Shown here piece by piece: positions 15,924-51,690 of a DNA stretch of 64,000 nucleotides; within the stretch, counting starts at the first letter, position 1; the number at the start of each line of letters is the position of its first letter. Made by a program: the position numbers and the translations under genes. The stretch is taken from the NCBI GenBank assembly GCA_963575745.1, contig CAUYUJ010000263.1:1-64000 (forward strand), read 5' to 3'. This stretch comes from Prorocentrum cordatum. Its lineage: Eukaryota. The notes below the pieces were generated by a model that made no database searches, was not told the origin of the DNA, and saw nothing but the letters and a program-made list of their open reading frames with translations.

Positions 15924-17292
15924 CCCGGAAAGGGCTTAAGCCCAGGGTTCTCTTTTAGTAGGTAAACCTGTCCCCCGGTGCCTGCTTGAAGGAGGCCGGC
16001 GAATTTTTTCCCTGATAAATAACGAGGTCGAAGGAGGCCGGCGAATTTTTCCCTGATAAATAACGAGCCCGCGAATTAAAATTTGAGGATGTCTCGAGCG
16101 AAACGCTTGTTTTTGAGCGCCCGCGAATTAAAATTTGAGGATGTCTCGAGCGAAACGCTTGTTTTTCAGAATTTGTCGAGGATGTCTCGAGCGAAACGCT
16201 TGTTTTTCAGAATTTGTTCCCGGAAAGGGCGTAGGCCCAGGGTTCTCTTTTAGTAGGTAAACCTGTCCCCCGGTGCCTGCTTGAAGGAGGCCGGCGAATT
16301 TTTTCCCTGATAAATAACGAGCCGGCGAATTGCCGGCGAATTTTTTCCCTGGTAAATAAATAACGAGCCGCCGGCGAATTAAAATTTGAGGATGTCTTGA
16401 GCGAAACGCTTGTTTCCATGCACGACCATACCCCAGCACGACCACACCCCAGCACGACCAGCACGACCCACCCCAGCACGACCCCACCCCAGCACGACCC
16501 CACCCCAGCACGACCCGCCCCAGCACGACCCTACCCCAGCAAGACCACACCCCAGCACGACCACACCCCAGCACGACCTCACCACAGCACGACCACACCC
16601 CAGCACGACCACGCCCCAGCACGACCACGCCCCAGCACGACCACGCCCCAGCACGACCACCCCCCAGCACGACCAGCACCCACCAGCACGACCACCCCCC
16701 AGCACGACCACGCCCCAGCACGACCACACCCCAGCACGACCACACCCCAGCACGACCACCCCCAGCACGCACCCCCAGCACGACCACACCCCAGCACGAC
16801 CCCACCCCAGCACGACCCCACCCTAGCAAGACCACACCCCAGCACGACCACACCCCAGCACGACCTCACCACAGCACGACCACACCCCAGCACGACCACG
16901 CCCCAGCACGACCACGCCCCAGCACGACCACGCCCCAGCACAACCACCCCCCAGCACGACCACCCCCCCAGCACGACCACACCCCAGCACGACCACCCCC
17001 CAGCACGACCACACCCCAGCACGACCACTCCCCAGCACGACCACACCGCCTTGGTTGAGTGGTTGCCTGTCGTCGTGGAATGTTTCGTGGGGTGTCTCGT
17101 GGAATGTTTCGCGGGGTGTCTCCTGGAATGTTTCGTGAGGTGTCTCGCGGAATGTTTCGTGAGGTGTCTCGTGGGATGTTTCGTGAGGTGTCTCGTGGGA
17201 TGTTTCGTGAGGTGTTGCCCCGTTGGGTATCGTGAAAACGTGCCCATGCTCCACATGTCTATATCCCTTTCCGGGTTCGTGGGTCCATCATG
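15924..17292 (+). mobile_element. Non-autonomous asymmetric-TIR element (Helitron2/Helentron-like), copy A, with a duplicated 5' end at 16219
   Basis: Starts T-run|CCCGGAAAGGG; contains GAGGATGTCTCGAGCGAAACGCTTG modules, the 16-bp satellite CCCCAGCACGACCACA and 24-bp GTGGAATGTTTCGTGAGGTGTCTC repeats; ends CCCTTTCCGGG-TTCGTGGGTCCATCATG|T-run. Confidence 0.8.
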
Positions 17293-19770
17293 TTTTTGAA
17301 GCGTGAGGGTTGTGTTGAATATTCGATTTGGTGTTCGCCGATGCATGTTTTCCGAAGTGCATGCGTGAGTCACGCCTTTCCCGCAAGCGGGACGAGACGT
17401 CTTAGGGCGCTCGATCGGACGTCGTGTTTTCTGGTTCACGACGAATTTATGTCCTCCACTCTCGAGGGTCGAGTTTCGAGGCTCTCTGCCTTTCGGGTGC
17501 CATCCCCTCCCCCCCCACCTCCTCCCACTTTCCCCCACGTCTTCCCAGCTACTCTCACATCACCCCACCTCTCACCGCCTCCCACCTCCTCCCACGTCCT
17601 CCCACCTCCTCCAAACTCGTCCCATCTTCTCTCCCACCTCCTTTCCACGTCCTCCCGAGTCCTTCCACCTCTCCCCACCTCATCCCATCTCCTCCCACGT
17701 CCACCCGAGTCCCCCCGAGTCCCCCCACTTCTTCCCGCGTCCCCCCGTGTCCTCCCATGTCCACCCGCGAGGAGGGAAGAAAATCGCATTACATGTTCAG
17801 CACTCCCCTTGCGTGGTGCTTCGCGGTCCGCAGCATATCCTCACCTACGTACTCTTTCCACCTGTCCTGTGCACGCAGGCACTGTGGTGTACGCCATCGC
17901 TGTGTTGCACGGCTGTGGTGTACACCGGCGCCTTGGTGTGCACAGGCGCTGCGGTGCACGAAAGCATTGTGGTGTACACAGGCGCTGTGTTGCAGGCGGC
18001 TGCTGCGGTGTACGCATTCGTTTTGGTGTACACAGGCGTTGTGGTGCACGCAAGCACTGTGGTGTACACAGGTGCTGCGTTGCACACGGCATTTGCGGTG
18101 TACAACGACGCTGTGGTGTACACGCGCGCTGAGGTGCACGCGAGCGCTGTGGTGTACACAGACGGTGTGGCGCAGAGCGCCATCTACACGCTGGTCCTAC
18201 TTGGCTTTGGTCATTCCTCGGCGTTCCCGGACGTCGACGGCGCAGAACGTGACGTCACCTGGAGGGGGGGGACGCCGGGCCGGTGACGGCCGCTACCGCG
18301 GAGCATAAAAAATTAACCCCGCGCCATTTCTGCACACCCGTCGCACGCATCGCGGCCCCACAGGGAGTGTTTCCGAAGGCTCCAGTGGCAGGGTTCGCAT
18401 GCGTCGGCCCAGCCAATGTCGACACACCCTTCGCACGCTTGAGCTCCTGCGAAGGTCCCAATGGCAGGGTTCGCATGCGCCTCCCCGCACCATTTCGTCA
18501 CACCCCTCACGCGCTTCAGGGCCCCATATGAGAGTTTCCCCGAAGACCCCAGCCAATGGCAGGGCTTGCTTCTCCCCGCACTATTTCGGCAAACCCCTCG
18601 CACGTTCCGGGGCCCGACAAGAAGCTGCTGCGAAGGCCCCAGTGGAAGCGACAGGGTTCGCATGGTACCACCTTGCCCATTTCGGCATAAACTCACACGC
18701 CTCGTGGCCCCAAAGGGAGCCCCACCGAAAGCGCTACCCACACCATGGTACTCACATCTGCTTACGGATGGGTATGTATCACACAGATATGGACAGACGC
18801 GCAGTCACACATGAGCACACGCAGATCCGCATTCACGGAAGGTTGTTCGCACCCGGACACATACATGAAGCACAGGCTTGCACACATACGCGCACCTATG
18901 CCTACCATTGCGTACGCACGTACAAACACGGAAGGCGAATCCATATACATATATACCTATACGACCACCCTTCGGGTGATAAGGAGGTACGGGGAGGGGG
19001 AGGAACCAACGTCTCACTCGATCGGTCTCACTATCGATCTCACGATCGATCTGACTATCGGTCTCGCTCGATCGATCTCACTCGATCGATCTCACAACCG
19101 CTATCACTCGATCTGTTTCATTCGATCGATCTCACAATCGATCTGATTATCGATCTCACAATCGATGTCACTACCGATCTGACTATCGATCTCACAGTCG
19201 ATCCCACATTCGGTCTCACTATCGATCTCACTATCGGTATCACAATCGATCTCACAATCAAAGTCATCTTCAACATCAACATCAGCTTCATCAACGTCAT
19301 CAACATCATCATCATCACCATCATCATCGGGACACCATCATCATCATCACCTCATCACCACCATCAGCAACCTCATCATCACCATCATCATCGGGACGCC
19401 ATCATCGTCACCATCATCATAATCAACATCGTCATCATCGGGAACACCACTATCTTCATCATAATTGTTATCTCATCGTCAGCATCATGAACAACATCAT
19501 CAACATAATCATCATCATCATCGGGACACCATCATCCGCAACATCGTCATCAACATCATCACCATCGGTAACCCATCATCATCGGCACCATCATCATCAT
19601 CACCATCATCATCATCGGGAAGCCATCATCATCGACATCAGCATCATCGTCATCACCATCATCGGGCCACCATCACCAAATTCATCATCATCACATCATC
19701 ATTCTCAGTATCAACATCATCATAATCATCATCACCATCGGGACACCATCATCGTCATCATCATTTTCAA

Positions 19771-19804
<34 letters not shown>

Positions 19805-19808
19805 GGGG

Positions 19809-19830
19809 TCCGTAGCCATTTTGGCTCAAG
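19809..19830 (+). other. Genomic copy of the dinoflagellate spliced leader (DinoSL)
   Basis: TCCGTAGCCATTTTGGCTCAAG is an exact match to the DCCGTAGCCATTTTGGCTCAAG consensus and lies 77 nt upstream of the 14-3-3 ATG. No SL-RNA intron (GT...) follows. Confidence 0.97.
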
Positions 19831-19907
19831 GCGAAGAGATTTCCAATCAGATTGGAGATACGTAGCATCGGCCGGGGGTCCACCTCGCAAAACAGCCAGT
19901 TGTAGGG

Positions 19908-20630
19908 ATGGCAGTGAATCGCGATAAGGAGGTTTACTTCGCGAAGCTTGCGGAGCAAGCGGAGCGCTACGACGAGATGGCGACTCACATGGAGGCAGTG
20001 GGGAAGTCAGGGGACGAGCTGTCAGTTGAAGAACGCAATCTCTTGTCCGTGGCCTACAAGAACGCCGTGGGTTCGCGCCGCGCTGCATGGCGTATCATCA
20101 CCAGCGTGGAGCAGAAGGAGACTAGCAAGGGCAACGAGGAAAATGCAAAGTTCGCGAAGGAGTATTGCAAGAAGGTGGAGGGTGAGCTCGATGACATTTG
20201 CAAGAAGATCCTTGCCGTGTTGGACAACAGTCTCATCGGAAAGGCAACCACAGGCGAGTCGAAGGTCTTCTACCAGAAGATGAAGGCCGACTACTACCGC
20301 TACATTGCCGAGTACACAACCGGTGCTGACAAGGAAAAGGCTTCGAACGACGCCAAATTAGCCTACGAGGAGGCGCAAGCGATTGCCGACAAGGACTTGG
20401 CAGTGACGCACCCGATCCGCCTCGGTCTTGCTCTGAACTTCTCTGTGTTTCAGTACGAGGTGTTGGCGAATCCGGACGAGGCGTGCAAGATGGCGCGCAC
20501 CGCCTTCGAGGACGCCATCGCCGAGCTCGACAACGTCGCAGAGGACTCCTACAAGGACTCCACCCTCATCATGCAGCTGCTCCGCGACAATCTGACGCTC
20601 TGGACCTCGGACCAGGAGGGCGAGCCCTGA
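19908..20630 (+). CDS. 14-3-3: 14-3-3 protein, intact intronless retrocopy (240 aa)
   Basis: Signature motifs [80 protein letters not shown]; no stops or frameshifts. Confidence 0.98.
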
Positions 20631-20821
20631 GGAAGGCATGCGCCACAAGCGGGACCCGCCGTCGGAAGAGCGTGCCAGCGGGGTTGCCCAAGGAGCAGCC
20701 GCAGGCACCAGGCGCCTAATTGGCAAGTTGCCGTAAGAGCTCGCCAGCTCGCCAGCGAGGCTGCCCCAGGGAAGCGCCCCCGGGCTCGGCCCATCGACCC
20801 CGTGCGTCAGAAGCAAGCAAC

Positions 20822-20845
20822 AAAAAAAACATCATCATCATCGGG
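20822..20845 (+). other. Poly(A) remnant (A8) and 3' copy of the target-site duplication
   Basis: AAAAAAAA (20822-20829) then CATCATCATCATCGGG (20830-20845), identical to 19792-19807. Confidence 0.8.
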
Positions 20846-20890
20846 ACACCATCATCATCACCATCATCATCAACATCATTATCATCGACC

Positions 20891-20926
<36 letters not shown>

Positions 20927-21129
20927 CCACCGGGACACCATGATCATCTCCATCATAATCATCATCATCTCATCATCACACCATAATCAAGAACATCAAC
21001 ATCATCATCATCGGGACCCCATCATCATAAGCAACATCATCATCAACAACATCATCATTGGGGCGACATCATCATCACCACCATCATCATCATCATCATC
21101 CACATCGTCAACATCATCATCAGCATCAG

Positions 21130-21170
<41 letters not shown>

Positions 21171-21222
21171 GGACACCATCGTCACCATCGCCATCACATC
21201 ATCAGCATCAACATCATCGACG

Positions 21223-21265
<43 letters not shown>

Positions 21266-21266
21266 T

Positions 21267-21313
<47 letters not shown>

Positions 21314-21338
21314 TATCATCATCATTATCATCATCATT

Positions 21339-21378
<40 letters not shown>

Positions 21379-22556
21379 CCGACGGGGCACTGGCGGGACA
21401 CCGGCGGGACACCGCGCGCCACCAGCCCCTGGTCAGGAAAGATTTGGTCCGGCCGCGCATCAGCCGGACGCGGGACACCGTCGGGACACCGCGCGCCACC
21501 GGCCCCCGGTCAGGAAACACTTGGTCCGGCCGCACCTCAGCCGGAGGAGACTTTCTACTGGCCCGCCCACGCAGCTTCGCCCCGCCCGCACGCATGGCAC
21601 GCACGAACACGAAACTGAAACCGATTTCCCGGTAGGGGGGCTCTCCGTTCCACTTCGATCTTACCCCCTCACCTCCGTACATATATATATATATATATGT
21701 ATGTATATATATATGTATATATATATATATCCACATACACACATATATGTACACATGTATATTGTGCATGTCGACTGCGCCAGTCAATACATATCGTCGC
21801 TTGGGAGGCTATTATATTTGTTGACTCCGGTCGTCGCGTTTTGCTTGCTTCGTGCCAATCTTTCATGGCAGCCTTGCGATGCCCCCGCAACGCTTCGGCT
21901 CAGCATATTTTACGTGAGACATCCTAGCCCTCTCTCACATCGCGCCGTCGCCCTTCGGCGTTGCGCCTGATTTCCTCAGAGGAGCGAGACTGCCACGAGT
22001 GGGGCTTCGGGTGCGGACAGGTGACGACTGTAAGTAGGGTGCCGCTGCCTTTCAGAAGTATAAGGAAGGGTTGCACGCATGTGTGTGCTCTCTCTCTCTC
22101 TCTCTCGTTCTCGTTCTCGTTCTCGTTCTCGTTCTCTCTCTCTCTCTCTCTCTATGTATCGTTACCTGACTCTTTATATTTCTCTGTGTCTCTCTCTCTC
22201 TCTCTCTTTCTCAGTCGTTCTCTGACTCTCTCGCTTGTTGCGTACGCGACGACGTAGGTGAACGGCGGAAGTTGAAAGCAATGAGGCAGAGGATGCCACA
22301 TCCTGCTTCCGCTGCTCATCCTGTTCCTGTGCAGCATCCTGTTCTTGCTCCTCCTCGCCTCCTCCTATTCCTGCTTCTCCTCCACCTGCTTCACGCTGCC
22401 GTGCCATCGGCTTTGTGGTTGAATGCGTGGGTGGCCCCCCTTCTCATCGAGAAGTCTTCTCCCGGGCCCAGAGTGGGAAAGCGTCGGCGAGCTCGGCGTG
22501 ATTTGCTCCTCCCGGTGCCTCATCATCCGCTTGCAGACCGCCTCCTCTGGCTTCCT

Positions 22557-26620: not shown

Positions 26621-27123
26621 GCGCCCCGCGCGGCCCCCCAAGGGCGCGGGCCGCGGGGGCGGCGGCAAGGCCGGCGAGTGCCAGAACCCCGCAGGGGCTT
26701 CATGACGCGCAGAGGGCCTCGGGGATGGCAGATGGGCGCGCCGGCCCCTTTGGCGAGGGGGCCCCACTATGCCCCGGTCGCGGGCTCGCAGGACCCGAGA
26801 GCTGCACCGCGCGACCTCTTCCCTCTTCCGAGGCTCGATGAGAACCTGGCCGCGCGCGGGGGCATGTCGCGCCCCGTTCGCCATGGGCTGAAGTTGCGTC
26901 GCGCCAAGGGCCAGCATGCGGATGCCATGATCGACTCCCCCAACTGGCTCTGCGGCGGGGAGCGCGGCCTCGCCGGGCCTGGCGTTTCTACCAGCGCTGC
27001 GCAGCGTGAAGCCCAGTTCTGCTTCGACATGCGGGGGCTGACGATGGTTACCCCGCTGCCGACTCGAGAAGCCACCCGCGTGCTTCTCCGTTCTGACCTT
27101 GGCCACGACGGTGGGGGGGGGGG

Positions 27124-28660
27124 ACGTGCGTCAATTTTCATTGAACGAACTGATTTTCGCGTTGAGAAAGATGAAGAACGGAAAAGCAGCTGGCCCTGAT
27201 GACGTACCACCAGATTTTTGGAAGGTTGCATCTGCAGATGTACACGCTTGCCAAGCACTATTGCACGTTTGTCAGCGGTGTTGGCCCCAGAAAGACACAC
27301 CGGAAAAATGGCGCATGGCGAATGTCATTTAGCTTTTCAAGAAAGGAGACGCAAATTTACCAAGCAACTATCGTCCGATCTCGTTGCTCTCGGTGGGATA
27401 CAAAGCCCTCGCGGCGATGTTGCATCAGCGACTGCTTCAAGGAGGTGCAGAAGATCGATTACGACACTCACAGTTTGGATTCCGGCCTCGCCGGGGCACC
27501 GCCGACGCGCTCGTGCTTGTGAGGCGCATGATCGACGCAACGCTGATGAATAGCAACGGTGGCATTATTTTGTTCTCCTTGATTGGGCCAAGGCGTTCGA
27601 CCGATTGAAGCCAGAGTGTTTGTGCGCAGCTTTGACAAGGTTTGGGCTACCGCAACCTTTCGCGCGAATGGTCAGAGGAATTTATTCGCGCAGGTATTTC
27701 ACTATACTAGACCATTGTGGTAAATCTTCGCAACGACGCCAAGCTGCCGGCATTGCGCAGGGATGCCCGTTGCCACCGTATTTATTTATTACTGTGCAGA
27801 CGGTGATGCTTCAGGACGCTCTGTCGGACCTGCGCCTTCAACAAGATCCAGGCTATGTGGTCTCTAGGGATATTCTGTACGCCGACGACGCTGCGTTGGC
27901 ATCTCAACATGAAGGAAACCTACAGATCATGCTGGGCGCAATCGCGGCAGAGGGGCGGAAGTACGGATTGGAATTGAGTTGGGACAAAACGGTGCAACTT
28001 CAAATCGGTTCTGTTGGCTTTGTGAGAACGCCGGATGGGGGCCCGATCAAGATTGTCAAGGAAGCTATTTTTTTTGTGGGCTCTTAACTATTGACGGACG
28101 CGCTGGCAATGAACTTTCGAGACGACTTGGAGAAGGCAGAAGTGTTGTTCAACAACTTACTAACTTGTGGACACACTCCGCGGTTGGTTGGCGACGCAAG
28201 ATACTCATATACAACAGCTGCGTGCTCAGCAAACTATTGTACTTGTTGGATTCGCTGTGGCTTCTCAAGCACGACAGAGACAGGCTCGACGCATTCCACT
28301 GCACATGTTTGCGCCGCATTTTAAGGGTCCCACATTCTTACATCTCGCGCGTCAGCAACGTGAACGCACTGGAGAGAGCTGGATCACAACCTTTGTCCTC
28401 AATCTTACGTGAGCGGCAAGTGCAACTCTGCCGGGGAATTGCTTCTGAGACCGGCGGGTCGCTCGCGAGGCGCATTGTGTGCAATCGCAACGGCACGCCC
28501 AAAAATTGGGCTGGCCGCAGACGCCGGGGGCGCCCCAGACAGCAATGGGCAGCCTCTGTGTCTCGAAGCATAGCTGTCTTGTGACGTCACGCATGAATGC
28601 CGAACTTTTTAATACGCCTACGCGTCTGTAAGGGATGCAAGGCCGCAGTCAGTCAGTCAG
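27124..28660 (+). mobile_element. 5'-truncated LINE (RTE-like) reverse transcriptase, pseudogenised, with a (CAGT)n 3' tail
   Basis: KNGKAAGPD; in-frame TAG at 27330; NYRPISLLSVGYK; QFGFRPRRGT; LDWAKAFD (after a frameshift at ~27570); GIAQGCPL; YADD at 27878-27889; frameshift in the T-run at ~28070; RRRRGRPRQQW; stop at 28584; CAGTCAGTCAGTCAG at 28646-28660. Confidence 0.92.
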
Positions 28661-28792: not shown

Positions 28793-31500
28793 AAGAAATT
28801 TGTTGAGGAGATCTTCTCGTGCTCTAAGCACCTCTCGTTTGCTGCGGCCCAGCGTGGGCGCAGATGTTACGCCGTTGATGTACGCGGCCCGCCCAGACGG
28901 AGCGTCCTACGGCTCAAAGCGTTCGAAGCCATCAAAGCTCTCAGCGTGCGCCCCGATTGCAAGCTCGTCTGGATGGGTGCCCCCCGCGCGTCGTGGTCGA
29001 GAGCGAGACGGGGGGGGGGGGCCCCCCCCCCCCCCCCCCCCCTCAGGGATTCCAGCGACGGCCTGCGCGGACATTGTGGTCTCAGCGACTCGGATGCTCA
29101 AGAGGTCAAGGTCGAAAACCAACTGGTGAGAATATCCGCCGGACTAGCTCGCGAGGCTGCCGTCTTCCGTCGTCAGCGCATCGTAGGAATCCTGGCAAGC
29201 TCGAGGATACGGCTGACTTCTGAGTTCTTGTGATTGGAGGGCATAGGCTGGGTAAAATACCAATGTAGCTTTTGTGGGTGCGGTACCCCCTGGCTGAACA
29301 AAAAAACACTTGTTTGTTGGCCCGCTCTGCCCCAGGGCTCGCTGAGCTCCTCAGGCGTCGCATGAAAGCTGGGCGCTGCGGTTTTTCCCGGAAAGGGCTT
29401 AAGCCTAGGGTTCTCTTTTAGTATGTAAACATGTCCCCCGGTGCCTGCTTGAAGGAGGCCGGCGAATTTTTTCCCTGATAAATAACGAGGTCGAAGGAGG
29501 CCGGCGAATTAAAATTTGAGGATGTCTCGAGCGAAACGCTTGTTTTTGAAATCCCGATCGATAAATCACAGGGTGCGGGCCACTTTTTCGTGTGTTGAGG
29601 ATGTCTCGAGCGAAACGCTTGCTCCGCAGAGTTTGCCGAGGATGTCTCGAGCGAAACGCTTGTTTTGCAGAGCCGACCGCGACGCGGAAAAGCGCCCCGC
29701 GCGAAGGAATTTCGATGATGTCTCGACTAATTCCTTTGTTTTTGTACGATTTCCTGGAATTTTGGCAGGATGTCTCGAGCGAAATGCACGACCCCACCCT
29801 AGCACGACCATACCCCAGCACGACCACACCCCAGCACGACCAGACCCCAGCACGACCCCACCCCAGCACGACCCCACCCCAGCACGACCATACCCCAGCA
29901 CGACCACACCCCAGCACGACCCGACCCCAGCACGACCCTACCCCAGCAAGACCACACCCCAGCACGACCACACCCCAGCACGACCTCACCACAGCACGAC
30001 CACACCCCAGCACGACCACGCCCCAGCACGACCACGCCCCAGCACGACCACGCCCCAGCACGACCACCCCCCAGCACGACCACCCCCCCAGCACGACCAC
30101 CCCCGAGCACGACCACCCCCCAGCACGACCACCCCCAGCACGACCACTCCCCAGCACGACCACACCCCAGCACGACCACACCCCAGCACGACCACAGCAC
30201 GACCACACCCCAGCACGACCACACCCCAGCACGACCCGATCGATAAATCACAGGGTGCGGAGCACCCCAGCACGAACCCACCCCAGCACGACCCCACCCC
30301 AGCACGACCCGACCACACCCCAGCACGACCGCACCCCAGCACGACCTCACCACAGCACGACCACACCCCAGCACGACCACGCCCCAGCACGACCACGCCC
30401 CAGCACGACCACGCCCCAGCACGACCACGCCCCAGCACGACCACGCCCCAGACCACCCCCCAGCACACCCCCCAGCACGACACCCCCCAGACACGACACG
30501 ACCACCCCCCAGCACGACCACCCCCCAGCACGACCACTCCCCAGCACGACCACACCCCAGCACGACCACACCCAGCACGACCACACCCCAGCACGACCAC
30601 ACCCCAGCACGACCACACCCCAGCACGACCACACCCCAGCACGACCCGATCGATAAATCACAGGGTGCGGAGCACCCCAGCACGAACCCACCCCAGCACG
30701 ACCCCACCCCAGCACGACCCCACCCCAGCACGACCACGCCCCAGCATGACCACACCCCAGCACGACCACACCCCAGCACGACCACTCCCCAGCACGACCC
30801 CACCCCAGCACGACCCCACCCTAGCACGACCACACCCCAGCACGACCACACCCCAGCACGACCCCACCCCAGCACGATCACACCCCAGCACGACCCCACC
30901 CCAGCAAGACCACACCCCAGCACGACCGCACCCCAGCACGACCTTACCACAGCACGACCACACCCCAGCACGACCACGCCCCAGCACGACCACGCCCCAG
31001 CACGACCACGCCCCAGCACGACCACGCCCCAGCACGACCACGCCCCAGCACGACCACCCCCCAGCACGACCACCCCCCCAGCACGACCACCCCCCAGCAC
31101 GACCACCCCCCAGCACGACCACACCCCAGCACGACCACTCCCCAGCACGACCACACCGCCTTGGTTGAGTGGTTGCCTGTCGTCGTGGAATGTTTCGTGG
31201 GGTGTCTCGTGGAATGTTTCGCGGGGTGTCTCGTGAAATGTTTCGTGAGGTGTCTCGTGGAATGTTTCGTGAGGTGTCTCGTGGGCTGTTTCGTGAGGTG
31301 TCTCGTGGGATGTTTCGTGAGGTGTTGCCCAGTTGGGTATCATGAAAACGTGTCCATGCTCCACATGTCTATATCCCTTTCCGGGTTCGTGGGTCCATCA
31401 TGTTTTCAGGCAGGATGCGCGAACAGCTCGTGGGCAAGAACCCGCAGGGCGAATTTCTAACGAGGATCGCTCAGCCGTATCCGTCGGTTCTTCTGCTCCC
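28793..31500 (+). pseudogene. C5-cytosine-methyltransferase-like domain split by copy C (coding parts 28793-29386 and 31403-31500)
   Basis: FVEEIFSCSKHLS (motif I-like); VWMGAPRASWSRAR (motif IV, PC>PR); IVGILASSRI (GIL is one base per codon from ENP); FCGCGTPW; joined across the insertion: GRCGFSGRMREQLVGKNPQGEFLTRIAQPYP. Confidence 0.6.
29387..31402 (+). mobile_element. Asymmetric-TIR element, copy C
   Basis: GGTTTTT|CCCGGAAAGGG ... CCATCATG|TTTTCAGG; long 16-bp satellite. Confidence 0.85.
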
Positions 31501-38230: not shown

Positions 38231-38330
38231 NNNNNNNNNNNNNNNNNNNNNNNNNNNNNNNNNNNNNNNNNNNNNNNNNNNNNNNNNNNNNNNNNNNNNN
38301 NNNNNNNNNNNNNNNNNNNNNNNNNNNNNN
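38231..38330. other. Assembly gap (100 N)
   Basis: Run of N. Confidence 1.
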
Positions 38331-38451: not shown

Positions 38452-41400
38452 CCCGGAAAGGGCTCAGGCCCAGGGTTCTCTTTTAGTAGGTAAACCTGTC
38501 CCCCGGTGCCAACTTGAGGGAGGCCGGCGAATTTTTTCCCTGATAAATAACGAGGTCGAAGGAGGCCGGCGAATTAAAATTTGAGGATGTTTCGAGCGAA
38601 ACGCTTGTTTTTGAAATCCCGATCGATAAATCACAGGGTGCGGGCCACTTTTTCCCGGAAAGGGCATGAGCCCAGGGTTCTCTTTTAGTTGGTAAACCTG
38701 TCCCCCGGTGCCAATTTGAGGGAGGCCGGCGAATTTTTTCCCTGATAAATAACGAGGTCGAAGGAGGCCGGCGAATTTAAATTTGAGGATGTCTCGAGCG
38801 AAACGCTTGTTTTTCAGAATTTGTTGAGGATGTCTCGAGCGAAACGCTGGTTTTGCAGAGTTGGGGATGTCTCGAGCGAAACGATTGTTTTCAGAATTTG
38901 CTGAGGATGTCTCGAGCGAAACGCTTGTTTTGCAGAGCCGACCGCGACGCGGAAAAGCGCCCCGCGCGAAGGAATTTCGATGATGTCTCGACTAATTCCT
39001 TTGTTTTTGTACGATTTCCTGGAATTTTGGCAGGATGTCTCGAGCGAAATGCACGACCCCACCCTAGCACGACCATACCCCAGCACGACCACACCCCAGC
39101 ACGACCAGACCCCAGCACGACCCCACCCCAGCACGACCCCACCCCAGCACGACCATACCCCAGCACGACCACACCCCAGCACGACACACGACCCAGCACG
39201 ACCCTCACCCCAGCAAGACCACACCCCAGCACGACCACACCCCAGCACGACCTCACCACAATCACGACCACGCCCCAGCACGCCACGCCCCCCACGACCA
39301 CGCCCAGCACGACCACGCCACACGACCACCCCCCAGAAGACCCCCCCCCAGCACGACCACCACCCCAGCACGACCGCACCCCCAGCACGACCAAACCCCA
39401 GCACGACCACTCCCCAGCACGACCCCACACCCCAGCACGACCCCATAGCACGACCCGATCGATAATCCAAGGGTGCGGACCACCCCAGCACGACACACCC
39501 CAGCACGACCCACCCCAGCACGACCCACCCCAGCACGACCACAGCCCCAGCACGACCACACCCCAGCACGACCACACCCCAGCACGACCCACACCCCAGC
39601 ACGACCCCACCCCAGCACTACCCACCATAGCACGACCATACCCCAGCACGACCACACCCCAGAACGACCAGACCCCAGCACGACCCCACCCCAGCACGAC
39701 CCCACCCCAGCACGACCATACCCCAGCACGACCACACCCCAGCACGACCCGACCCCAGCACGACCCTACCCCCGCAAGACCACACCCCAGCACGACCACA
39801 CCCCAGCACGACCTCACCACAGCACGACCACACCCCAGCACGACCACGCCCCAGCACGACCACGCCCCAGCACGACCACGCCCCAGCACGACCACCCCTC
39901 AGCACGACCACCCCCCTAGCACGACCACCCCCCAGCACGACCACCCCCCAGCACGACCACACCCCAGCACGACCACACCCCAACATGACCATACTCCAGC
40001 ACGACCACACCCCAGCACGACCACACCCAGTCGCACCCCCGTGGAAGGTTTCGTGGGGTGTCTGGTTGAGTGGTTGCCTGTTCGTGGGGTGTCTCGTGGA
40101 CTGTTTCACGGGGTGTCTCGTGGAATGTTTCGTGAGGTGTCTCGTGGGTTGTTTCGTGAGGTGTCTCGTGGGATGTTTCGCGGGGTGTCTCGTGGGATGT
40201 TTCGTGAGATGTCGCCCAGTTGGGTATCGTGAAAACGTGACCATGCTGCACATGTCTTTATCCCTTTCCGGGTTCGTGGGTCCATCATGTTCGTGTGTTG
40301 AGGATGTCTCGAGCGAAACGCTTGCTCCGCAGAGTTTGCCGAGGATGTCTCGAGCGAAACGCTTGTTTTGCAGAGCCGACCGCGACACGGAAAAGCGCTC
40401 CTCGCGCAGGAATTCCGAGGATGTCTCGACTAATTCGTTTGTTTTTGTGCGATTTCCTGGAATTTTGGCAGGATGTCTCGAGCGAAATGCACGACCCCAC
40501 CCTAGCACGACCATACCCCAGCACGACCACACCCCAGCACGACCACACCCCAGCACGACCCCACCCCAGCACGACCCCACCCCAGCACGACCATACCCCA
40601 GCACGACCACACCCCAGCACGACCCGACCCCAGCACGACCCTACCACAGCAAGACCACACCCCAGCACGACCACACCCCAGCACGACCTCACCACAGCAC
40701 GACCACACCCCAGCACGACCACGCCCCAGCACGACCACGCCCCAGCACGACCACGCCCCAGCACGACCACCCCCAAGCACGACCATCCCCCCAGCACGAC
40801 CACCCCCCAGCACGACCACCCCCCAGCACGACCACACCCCAGCACGACCACTTCCCAGCACGACCACACCGACACCCCAGCAACGACCCACCCCAGCACG
40901 ACACCCCCAGCACGACCAACCCCAGCACGACCACAAACCCCACACGACCCGATCGATAATCCTAGGGTGCGGAGCCACCCCATCCGAACCCCCCCCCAAG
41001 CCGACCCCACCCCGCACGTGACCCGCCCACCCCAGCACGAACCACGCCCCATCATGACCCCACCCCAGCACGACCACACCCCAGCACGACCACTCCCCAG
41101 CACGACCCACCCAGCACGACCCCACCCTAGCACGGCTCCACAACCCAGCACGGATACCATGTCCGGCAGCACGACCCCACCCCCAGCACGATCACAACCC
41201 CAGCCACGACCCACCCCAGCAGACCCACCCCGCACGACCGCCCCCCAGCACGACCTTACTCAAAGACGGTGCCGACCACACCCCAGCACGACCACACCAC
41301 AGCACGACCACGCCCCAGCACGACCACGCCCCAGCACGACCACGCCCCAGCACGACCACGCCCCAGCACGACCCCCCAGCACGACCACCCCCCCAGCACG

Positions 41401-48822: not shown

Positions 48823-51690
48823 AGTTCTGCCGTGCTCCTTCGCTCACGGGGTCTATTCTGCAATGCTCGTTTTTTGTTGTGCCGTCCTCCTTCGCTCTAC
48901 GGGCCTATTATGCCATGCTCCTGGCCATTTTATGTCACAATCATTTGTTCTTGGGGCTTATGATGCTCTGCTCCTGGTCGTTTTCTGCCGTGCTCCTTAG
49001 CTCTTGGAGCATATTCTGCGGTGCTCCTTCGCTTTCGGGGTTTATTCTGCCGTGCTCCTTGTGTTTGTCTTGCATACTCCTTCTTCCTTGGGGCGTATTA
49101 TGCTGTAATCTTGCATCTATCTTGCCGTGCTCCTTAGCTCTCGCGGTCTATTATGCCGTGCTCCTGGTCACTGGTCGTGTTTTGCAATGCTCCTTCTTTC
49201 CTGGCGCCTATTCTGCCGTGCTCCTCAGCTCTTGGGGTCTATTCTGCCGTGCTCCTGTTGTTTTTCTGTCATGCTCCTTCGCTCTTGGGGCCTTTTCTGC
49301 CGTGCTCCTCAGCTCTTGGGGTCTATTCTGCCGTGCTCTTTGTTTTTTTTTCTGCCGTGCTCCTTCGCTCATGGGGCCTATCCTGCCGTGCTCCTGGTCT
49401 TTTTCTGCCGTGCTCCTTAGCTCTGGGGTCTATTCTGCTGTGGTCCTGGTCTTTTTCTGCCGTGCCCCTGAGCTCTGGGGGTCTATTATGCCGTGCTCCT
49501 GGTCATTTTCTGCCGTGCTTCTTCGCACTTGGGGCATCTTCTGCCGTGCTCCTTGTCTCTTGGGTTCTATTCTGCCGTGCTCCTCGTCTTTTTCTGGTTT
49601 GCTCCTTCGCTCTTCGGGCCTATTCTGCCGTGCTCCTGGTCTTTTCTGTCGTACTCCTTGGCTCCTCGGGCCTTTTCTGCTGTGGTCCTGGTCTTTTCTG
49701 CCGTCGTCCTTACGCCGTGCTCCTGGCCATTTTCTGCCGTGCTTCTCTTGGGGCATCTTGGGGCCTATTATGCCGTGCTCCTTAGCTCTTGGGGTCTATT
49801 CTGCCGTGCTCCTGGTTTTTTTTTTTCTGCCGTGCTCGGCAGCTCTTGGAGTCTATTCTGCCATGCTCCTGGTTTGTTTCCGACGTGCTCCTTCGCTCAT
49901 GGGGCCTATTCTGCTGTGCTCCTGGTCTTTGTCTGCCGTGCTCCTGCTTTTTTTCTGCCGTGCTCCTTCGCACTTGGGGCATATTCTGCCGTGTTCCTTG
50001 TCTCTTGGGTTCTATTCTGCTGTGCTCCTCGTCTTTTTCTGGTTTGCTCCTTCGCTCTTGGGGTCTATTTTCCCGCACTCCTTCAGCTCTCGGGGTCTAC
50101 TCTGGCGTGCTTCTGTTTTTTTTTCTGCCGTGCTCCTTCGCTCTTGGGGCCTATTCTGCCGTGCTCCTGGTCATTCTCTGCCGTGCTCCTTAGCTTTTGG
50201 GGTCTATTATGCCGTGCTCTTGGTCTTTCTCTGTCGTACTCCTTCGCACTTGAGGCATATCCAGCCCTGCTCCTTAGCTCATGGGGTATATTCTGCCGTG
50301 CTCCTGGTCTTTTTCTGCCGTGCTCCTTCGCTCTTGGGGCCTATTCTGCCGTGCTCCTGGTCTGTTTTTTTCTGCCTGCTCCTTAGCTCTTGAGGTCTAA
50401 TATGCCGTGGTCATGGTCTTTTTTTCTGCCGTGCCCCTGAGCTCTGGGGGTCTATTCTGCCGTGCTCCTGGTCATTTTCTGCCGTGCTTCTTCGCACTTG
50501 GGGCATCTTCTGCCGTGCTCCTTGTCTCTTGGGTTCTATTCTGCCGTGCTCCTCGTCGGTTTCTGGTTTGCTCCTTCGCTCTTCGGGCCTATTCTGCCGT
50601 GCTCCTGGTCTTTTCTGTCGTACTCCTTGGCTCCTCGGGCCTTTTCTGCTGTGGTTTCGGTCTTTTCTGCCGTCGTCCTTAGCTCTTGGGGCATCTTCTG
50701 CCGTGCTCCTAGTCTTTTTTTCTGGCGTCTTTTTCGCTCTCGGGGTCTATTATGCCGTGCTCCTTAGCTCTTGGGGTCTATTCTGCCGTGCTCCTGGTCT
50801 TTTTCTGCCGTGCTCGGCAGCTCTTGGAGTCTATTCTGCCATGCTCCTGGTTTGTTTCCGACGTGCTCCTTCGCTCATGGGGCCTATTCTGCTGTGCTCC
50901 TGGTCTTTGTCTGCCGTGCTCCTGTTTTTTTTCTGCCGTGCTCCTTCGCACTTGGGGCATATTCTGCCGTGTTCCTTGTCTCTTGGGTTCTATTCTGCTG
51001 TGCTCCTCGTCTTTTTCTGGTTTGCTCCTTCGCTCTTGGGGTCTATTTTCCCGCACTCCTTCAGCTCTCGGGGTCTACTCTGGCGTGCTTCTGTTTTTTT
51101 TCTGCCGTGCTCCTTCGCTCTTGGGGCCTATTCTGCCGTGCTCCTGGTCATTCTCTGCCGTGCTCCTTAGCTTTTGGGGTCTATCCTGCCGTGCTCCTGG
51201 TCTTTCTCTGCCGTACTCCTTCGCACTTGAGGCATATCCAGCCCTGCTCCTTAGCTCCTGGGGTCTATTCTGCCGTGCTCCTGGTCTTTTTCTGCCGTGC
51301 TCCTTCGCTCTTGGGGCCTAATCTGCCGTGCTCCTGGTCTTTTTCTGCCTGCTCCTTAGCTCTTGAGGTCTATTCTGCCGTGCTCCTGGTCATTTTCTGC
51401 CGTGCTCCTTAGCTTTTGGGGTGTATTCTGCCGTACTCATTTGCTCTTGGGGTCTATTCTGCCGTGTTCCTTGTCTTTCTCTGCCGTGCTCCTTCGCTCT
51501 TGGGGCCTATTCTGCCGTGCTCCTGATCTTTTTCTGCCGTGTGCGCCCAGAAGCTCTGCCAAAACGACCACCGCGACGATCCGCACGGCAGATACAGGAA
51601 CACGGCAGAACACACAGAGCACACAGAGGCACGGCAGAACACAGAAGCACGGCAGAACAGGAGCACGGCAGAACACACAGGAGCACAGCG
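48823..51690. repeat. TTCTGCCGTGCTCC minisatellite with a ~975-bp internal tandem duplication and inverted units at the right end
   Basis: Unique variants recur about 970-980 bp apart (GTGCCCCTGAGCTCTGGGGG at 49462 and 50431); GCACGGCAGAA units at 51600-51675. Confidence 0.85.

Follow-up and report, generated by a model that had tools for sequence, protein, structure and literature searches.

Anatomy of the 14-3-3 locus

In the window analysed here (the whole stretch of 64,000 bases), an intronless gene for a 14-3-3 protein is embedded in a CAT-rich minisatellite and is flanked by two identical 16-nt sequences, which are treated below as a target-site duplication (TSD). All parts of this locus lie on the plus strand and, unless indicated otherwise, were delimited by direct reading. 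From left to right, these are the left copy of the TSD (19792-19807), in which a recurrent minisatellite landmark is cut off after GGG; an extra G (19808) that belongs neither to the target nor to the spliced leader (SL) and might be a trace of the mRNA cap; a DNA-encoded DinoSL (19809-19830), which is the sole match to this leader in the window; a 77-nt 5'UTR of the copied mRNA (19831-19907); an intronless coding sequence for 240 amino acids followed by TGA (19908-20630), recognized by Pfam and by alignment with its paralogues; a 191-nt 3'UTR (20631-20821); a run of eight A (20822-20829), the remnant of a poly(A) tail, which abuts the right copy of the TSD; and this right copy itself (20830-20845), after which the satellite unit resumes with its usual ACACC. 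The two 16-mers, the DinoSL, both UTRs, the ORF and the A8 run, all of them listed previously, were confirmed on direct reading, and every coordinate previously given proved correct. The initial annotation also named these parts in their proper order, the one element that it overlooked being the G at 19808.

The DinoSL matches the consensus at 22 of 22 positions. When both strands of the 64,000 bases were searched with up to 3 mismatches allowed, a criterion under which 0.02 matches are expected by chance, this was the single match, with 0 mismatches, which bears out the earlier description of an exact 22-nt leader. No truncated SL relic was found elsewhere in the window with a 15-mer of the SL at up to 2 mismatches, this search returning only the leader's own site; at up to 3 edits, the same 15-mer has one other match, with 3 substitutions, on the minus strand near position 2964 (in reverse-complement coordinates). 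The 5'UTR (19831-19907) likewise contains no relic SL under either of these two criteria. It lacks an upstream ATG and includes an in-frame TAG at 19863-19865. The G at 19808 separates the left 16-mer from the first base of the SL and is absent after the right copy of the TSD. Given that the right 16-mer is followed by A, the G that follows the left one is not part of the target sequence. The possibility that the leader belongs to an SL RNA gene was considered and rejected: what follows it is a UTR instead of a GT intron, and a search of the window with Rfam gave no matches at the gathering thresholds.

The protein encoded at 19908-20630 matches the Pfam 14-3-3 family (PF00244) with an E-value of 1e-97 and a score of 326.6 bits (cut-off 33.2), covering profile positions 2-223 of 223. 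The single 240-aa ORF aligns end to end with the profile and with the paralogues, with no interruptions by introns, in full agreement with its previous annotation as an intact intronless 14-3-3 gene. Pfam was run on the 150 longest of the 357 stop-to-stop ORFs of at least 100 aa in the window; only the 14-3-3 family and a reverse transcriptase domain (RVT_1, see below) passed the cut-offs, the other matches being below cut-off and of low complexity. A tblastn search of the 64-kb window detected no second 14-3-3 copy, its output consisting of the self match and one chance match at E 3.9; therefore, the copy is dispersed rather than tandem.

Public collections include the same protein, encoded on a genomic contig of 116,101 nt. 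It belongs to a cluster of 35 members at 90% identity; the 15 members listed include at least five proteins named Prorocentrum cordatum and at least two MMETSP transcripts, and at least seven close family members are found in named Prorocentrum cordatum records. The proteins of Prorocentrum cordatum and related dinoflagellates in the cluster of P0001 (P0122, P0123, P0128, P0129, P0131) equal the window protein in length and are 94-99.6% identical to it in amino acid sequence. Among the members listed, the closest paralogue is P0122, which has two accessions in Prorocentrum cordatum, is also known as an MMETSP transcript and is identical to the window protein at 239 of 240 residues. The sole difference is at residue 161, where the window copy has D and the paralogue has T, and this site is variable in the family: across 134 relatives, the column contains E in 98, T in 26, A in 5, D in 4 (the window's own protein included) and S in 1. 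The family-invariant residues are all retained, and, as far as can be judged from its sequence, the copy shows no sign of decay.

Given the perfect leader, the 16/16 identity of the TSD copies, the purity of the A8 run and the single difference in 240 residues from the closest paralogue, the retrocopy appears to be young. The previous suggestion of a young insertion fits these observations.

The host minisatellite and the flanking duplication

The minisatellite that hosts the retrocopy was delineated with TRF and with a list of landmarks; its left part extends over positions 19264-19791 and its right part over positions 20846-21378, with the same strand (plus) and motif on both sides. It combines a 3-nt period with a period of ~47 nt and is marked by ATCGGGA landmarks. 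The 16-mer that flanks the insert occurs 5 times in the window (starts at 19510, 19604, 19792, 20830 and 21000), always inside the minisatellite (19264-21378), so that a simple match between two 16-mers is weak evidence for a TSD.

The landmarks are more informative. The ATCGGG/ATCCGG landmark occurs 11 times inside the array, at spacings of 47 to 94 nt on the left side and at larger spacings on the right side. Of the 10 landmarks away from the junction, 9 are followed by A and 1 by C; the eleventh, at 19802, ends after GGG, exactly at the junction with the insert. We further modelled the empty site by fusing the left flank up to 19807 to the right flank from 20846, which yields 1077 positions. 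Exact adjacent duplications of at least 8 nt are present at 172 of these positions and duplications of at least 16 nt at 31, all 31 being pure CAT runs; adjacent duplications that contain GG are found at 0 of the 1077 positions. When the insert is removed together with one 16-mer, a regular satellite unit is restored that fits the TRF consensus by eye. If there were no TSD, the original array would have had to contain two landmarks 16 nt apart, an arrangement found nowhere else in it. The absence of any other landmark-bearing duplication from the array thus indicates that the flanking duplication exceeds the periodicity of the satellite and is not random.

The 16-nt duplication accordingly looks real, its length and its reality both resting on the landmark argument. 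It is at most 16 nt long because the bases that precede the two copies differ (T vs A). Thus, the TSD proposed in the initial annotation stands, with 16 of 16 positions identical and with the landmarks in its favor, but the 16-mer is not unique, given its five local occurrences.

Other tandem arrays adjoin the insertion site, namely (ATCGATCTCACT)n, a 77-nt unit repeated twice and a 16-nt C-rich repeat (19021-19259, 21393-21545 and 16483-16640). The surroundings of the retrocopy are repeat-dense and apparently gene-poor.

Route of integration

The succession of TSD, G, SL, 5'UTR, intronless ORF, 3'UTR, A-run and TSD is the arrangement classically seen in full-length processed retrocopies and supports the production of this one by target-primed reverse transcription (TPRT), the locus combining a direct target duplication, an A-tract that abuts the 3' TSD and a true mRNA 5' end with an additional G. 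It appears probable that the template was a mature 14-3-3 mRNA from a Prorocentrum-like dinoflagellate, complete with cap, trans-spliced SL and poly(A) tail, and that it was copied into the minisatellite by TPRT, with a LINE-type enzyme acting in trans. Under this scenario, the mRNA would have been reverse-transcribed from the poly(A) tail toward the cap, directly at a staggered break in the CAT-rich array. The nick in the bottom strand would have fallen in (ATG)n, at GATG^ATGA and across from the boundary between positions 19791 and 19792, and its 3'-OH would have primed cDNA synthesis on the A-tail. On reaching the 5' end of the SL, the enzyme would have placed one residue opposite the cap, to be seen as the G at 19808; the top strand would have been cut 16 nt downstream, at ATCGGG^ACACC, and filling in of the stagger would have created the 16-nt duplication. 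The endonuclease and the reverse transcriptase would both have been supplied in trans by a non-LTR (LINE-type) element. What this scenario predicts is an intact gene copy of recent origin, lacking a promoter but equipped with an SL, whose internal AG could be used again as a trans-splicing acceptor if the locus is transcribed. Transcripts with a new SL upstream of the relic CCATTTTGGCTCAAG would be the mark of a functional retrogene of this DinoSL-tagged kind.

The G at 19808 fits the cap signature, which implies that reverse transcription would have proceeded through the whole SL to the cap. Together with the complete leader, the A-run and the 16-nt TSD, it agrees with the LINE-type TPRT invoked in the initial annotation; the nick site and the length of the tail do not conform to the L1 variety of this process. 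The consensus nick of the L1 endonuclease is TTTT^AA. A T-rich first-strand nick of this kind is not found at the retrocopy: the putative nick site GATG^ATGA lacks a run of T with which poly(A) could pair. The tail of eight A is also shorter than would be expected of a recent L1-type insertion. The lack of a T-run at the nick and the short tail therefore do not point to an enzyme of the L1 clade, and we describe the copy as TPRT-like in form without assigning it to the products of that clade.

These same two features, a nick site that is not T-rich and a short A-tail, are what could be expected if the cDNA had been made elsewhere, by a Ty1/copia-type LTR-retrotransposon or another cellular reverse transcriptase, and then end-joined at a staggered double-strand break, with no involvement of a LINE endonuclease or target priming. 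We consider this route unlikely given that both mRNA ends are complete, that the insert is flanked by a 16-nt duplication and that the tail directly abuts the 3' copy of the latter, whereas sequences captured at breaks usually have truncated ends and no regular duplication. Furthermore, neither LTR nor primer-binding sequence is present at either junction on direct reading. A 16-nt duplication without LTR sequence argues against insertion by a copia-type integrase, as such integrases produce 5-bp duplications. Involvement of Ty1/copia has been proposed by Lee et al. (2014), and direct evidence for any enzyme is lacking according to the article text of Song et al. (2017; PMC5585692), where the enzyme responsible for retroposition in dinoflagellates is 'presumably' a LINE.

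It is less probable still that the locus does not exist as such and that a cDNA, a transcript-derived sequence or a chimeric long read was joined into the satellite during assembly. Low-complexity satellite flanks are indeed a context where assemblers err, but a chimera would not duplicate 16 target nucleotides precisely on both sides of the insert. The satellite keeps its register and its strand across the insert, and the left landmark breaks off precisely at the junction; the nearest and only scaffold gap of the window, a run of 100 N at 38231-38330, is 17 kb away from the retrocopy; and the identical protein is recorded on the 116,101-nt genomic contig mentioned above. Equally remote is a segmental or satellite-mediated DNA duplication of an older retrogene, with the '16-nt TSD' reduced to a periodic satellite motif: the five occurrences of the 16-mer and the multiple close family members in Prorocentrum cordatum records would be compatible with such an origin, but the two copies of the repeat border, to the base, on the cap G and the A-tail respectively, landmarks 16 nt apart are otherwise missing from the array, and the window contains no other 14-3-3 copy.

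A non-LTR (LINE) reverse transcriptase, dead and truncated at the 5' end, is present on the plus strand at ~27042-28584, ~6.2 kb downstream of the retrocopy. The Pfam RVT_1 domain is split between two frames (E 6e-10 and E 5e-18), the reading frame being interrupted by a TAG at 27330-27332 and shifted near 27554-27605. The best relatives of this remnant among solved structures are the R2 and LINE-1 ORF2p reverse transcriptases. An APE endonuclease is combined with RVT_1 in 3 of the 35 longer relatives (E 1e-10 or better; 863 candidates), and none of these 3 is recorded under the host organism of the retrocopy. The 3' end of the remnant is (CAGT)n (28646-28660), not poly(A), and a search for a TSD around it found none. 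Judged by its domain homology, the remnant shows that LINE-type elements have lived in the host genome. Being broken, ending in (CAGT)n and having no TSD that could be found, it is a poor candidate for the source of the enzyme that made the retrocopy.

Comparison with known retrogenes and additional features of the window

DinoSL-tagged retrogenes are well known in dinoflagellates (Slamovits and Keeling, 2008, as cited in PMC6050394; Song et al., 2017, PMC5585692; Haro et al., 2025, PMC12014239). According to the article texts, at least about a fifth of the genes in Symbiodiniaceae are attributed to retroposition (PMC5585692, PMC6050394), and DinoSL-tagged retrogenes are reported to account for ~22-25% of the genes in two genomes of this family. 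For Prorocentrum cordatum, the genome paper reports the dinoSL in transcripts of 20.1% of the gene models, and a term search of its text returned no passage on genomic retrocopies (PMC10666404).

The window copy shares with the DinoSL-tagged retrogenes a genomic SL joined directly to the 5'UTR, a coding sequence without introns, derivation from a highly expressed, housekeeping-type gene, and an AG within the SL that permits repeated trans-splicing. It differs in its state of preservation and in its location. The published cases, as described in the article texts, were mostly recognized from an SL that survives in truncated or eroded form in a transcript or an upstream region, whereas the window copy retains the complete 22-nt SL, the cap G, the A-tail and the flanking duplication. 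Most Symbiodiniaceae retrogenes are located less than 10 kb from their parents, which led to the suggestion of in-situ retroposition (Song et al., 2017; PMC5585692); in contrast, no parent of the window copy is present within the 64-kb window.

The closest structural parallel is provided by the processed pseudogenes and retrogenes that LINE-1 produces in mammals. The available texts describe LINE-1-made gene copies with TSDs of ~16 bp, no introns and untemplated A-tracts (PMC9578709), and, where L1 insertions are full-length, one additional G at their 5' junctions that is interpreted as a cap signature (PMC11702581). The order TSD, extra G, full-length mRNA, A-tract, TSD and a TSD of ~16 bp are thus common to the mammalian copies and the window copy (PMC9578709, PMC11702581), the latter being distinguished by its GATG^ATGA nick, its tail of 8 A and a template that carried a trans-spliced leader.

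A term search of openly accessible article texts (main text) on dinoflagellate retroposition returned no mention of target-site duplications in the papers listed. No dinoflagellate paper was among the matches listed by a literature search for retrogenes combined with TSDs, and among the papers that join dinoflagellates, target site duplication and retro-terms, none concerned retrogenes as judged by the title and the start of the abstract. Within this body of openly accessible article texts, the flanking duplication and the cap G of a dinoflagellate retrocopy appear to be undescribed. What the present locus adds to the well-known DinoSL-tagged retrogenes is, on this literature, structural evidence for TPRT in dinoflagellates, in the form of the TSD, the cap G and the A-tail.

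As a gene, the retrocopy is one further member of an already multi-copy 14-3-3 family, and its added value is mechanistic. The route of integration is unreadable from eroded relics and becomes readable from a pristine copy with both junctions intact, which supplies the length of the TSD, the two cut positions and the cap signature. The locus also provides a search recipe, namely a full-length genomic DinoSL combined with an A-run and a flanking duplication, and genome-wide application of this recipe would make the mechanism directly testable. With regard to dinoflagellates in general, we regard the chances as evenly balanced that mRNAs are recycled by cap-to-tail TPRT with a stagger of ~16 nt, by a LINE-type enzyme with a nick preference unlike that of L1, in the present case in an (ATG)n/CAT satellite. 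If so, this would count against both the copia/LTR and the in-situ models, and an SL-bearing copy would arrive ready for re-trans-splicing and could work as a gene from the start.

Evidence of repeated recycling comes from a comparison set of 80 environmental 14-3-3 mRNA contigs, the best of which encodes a protein with 86% amino acid identity to that of the window. An SL-like 15-mer is present in sense orientation in 14 of the 80 contigs vs 4 of 80 in antisense orientation, and two to four tandem SL-like units precede the 5'UTR in L011 (1-55), L013 (8-36), L029 (1-27) and L047 (25-56). From the arrangement of these units, the contigs with stacked SLs are transcripts of retrogenes that were recycled more than once. 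The presence of SL-like units on 14-3-3 mRNAs, stacked in L011 and L013, thus indicates that this family has been recycled repeatedly and that its retrogenes are expressed in other dinoflagellates. An exact 24-nt pattern spanning the 5'UTR and the start of the window gene had 0 matches in metagenome contigs, and none of the 80 related metagenome loci showed similarity to the UTRs of the window copy, blastn matching the coding sequence alone.

Several additional features of the window deserve mention. Long homopolymers are found at 29010-29042, where G12 is followed by C21, and at 27113-27123, where the LINE remnant has a G11 run at its 5' edge; these runs may be insertion scars or oddities of sequencing or polishing. 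Extreme strand skews characterize the kilobase blocks 30001-31000, 39001-40000 and 49001-51000, with the GC skew reaching -0.57 and the AT skew ranging from +0.89 to -0.77. The composition of these blocks, which hold long spurious ORFs, suggests that they are further satellites.
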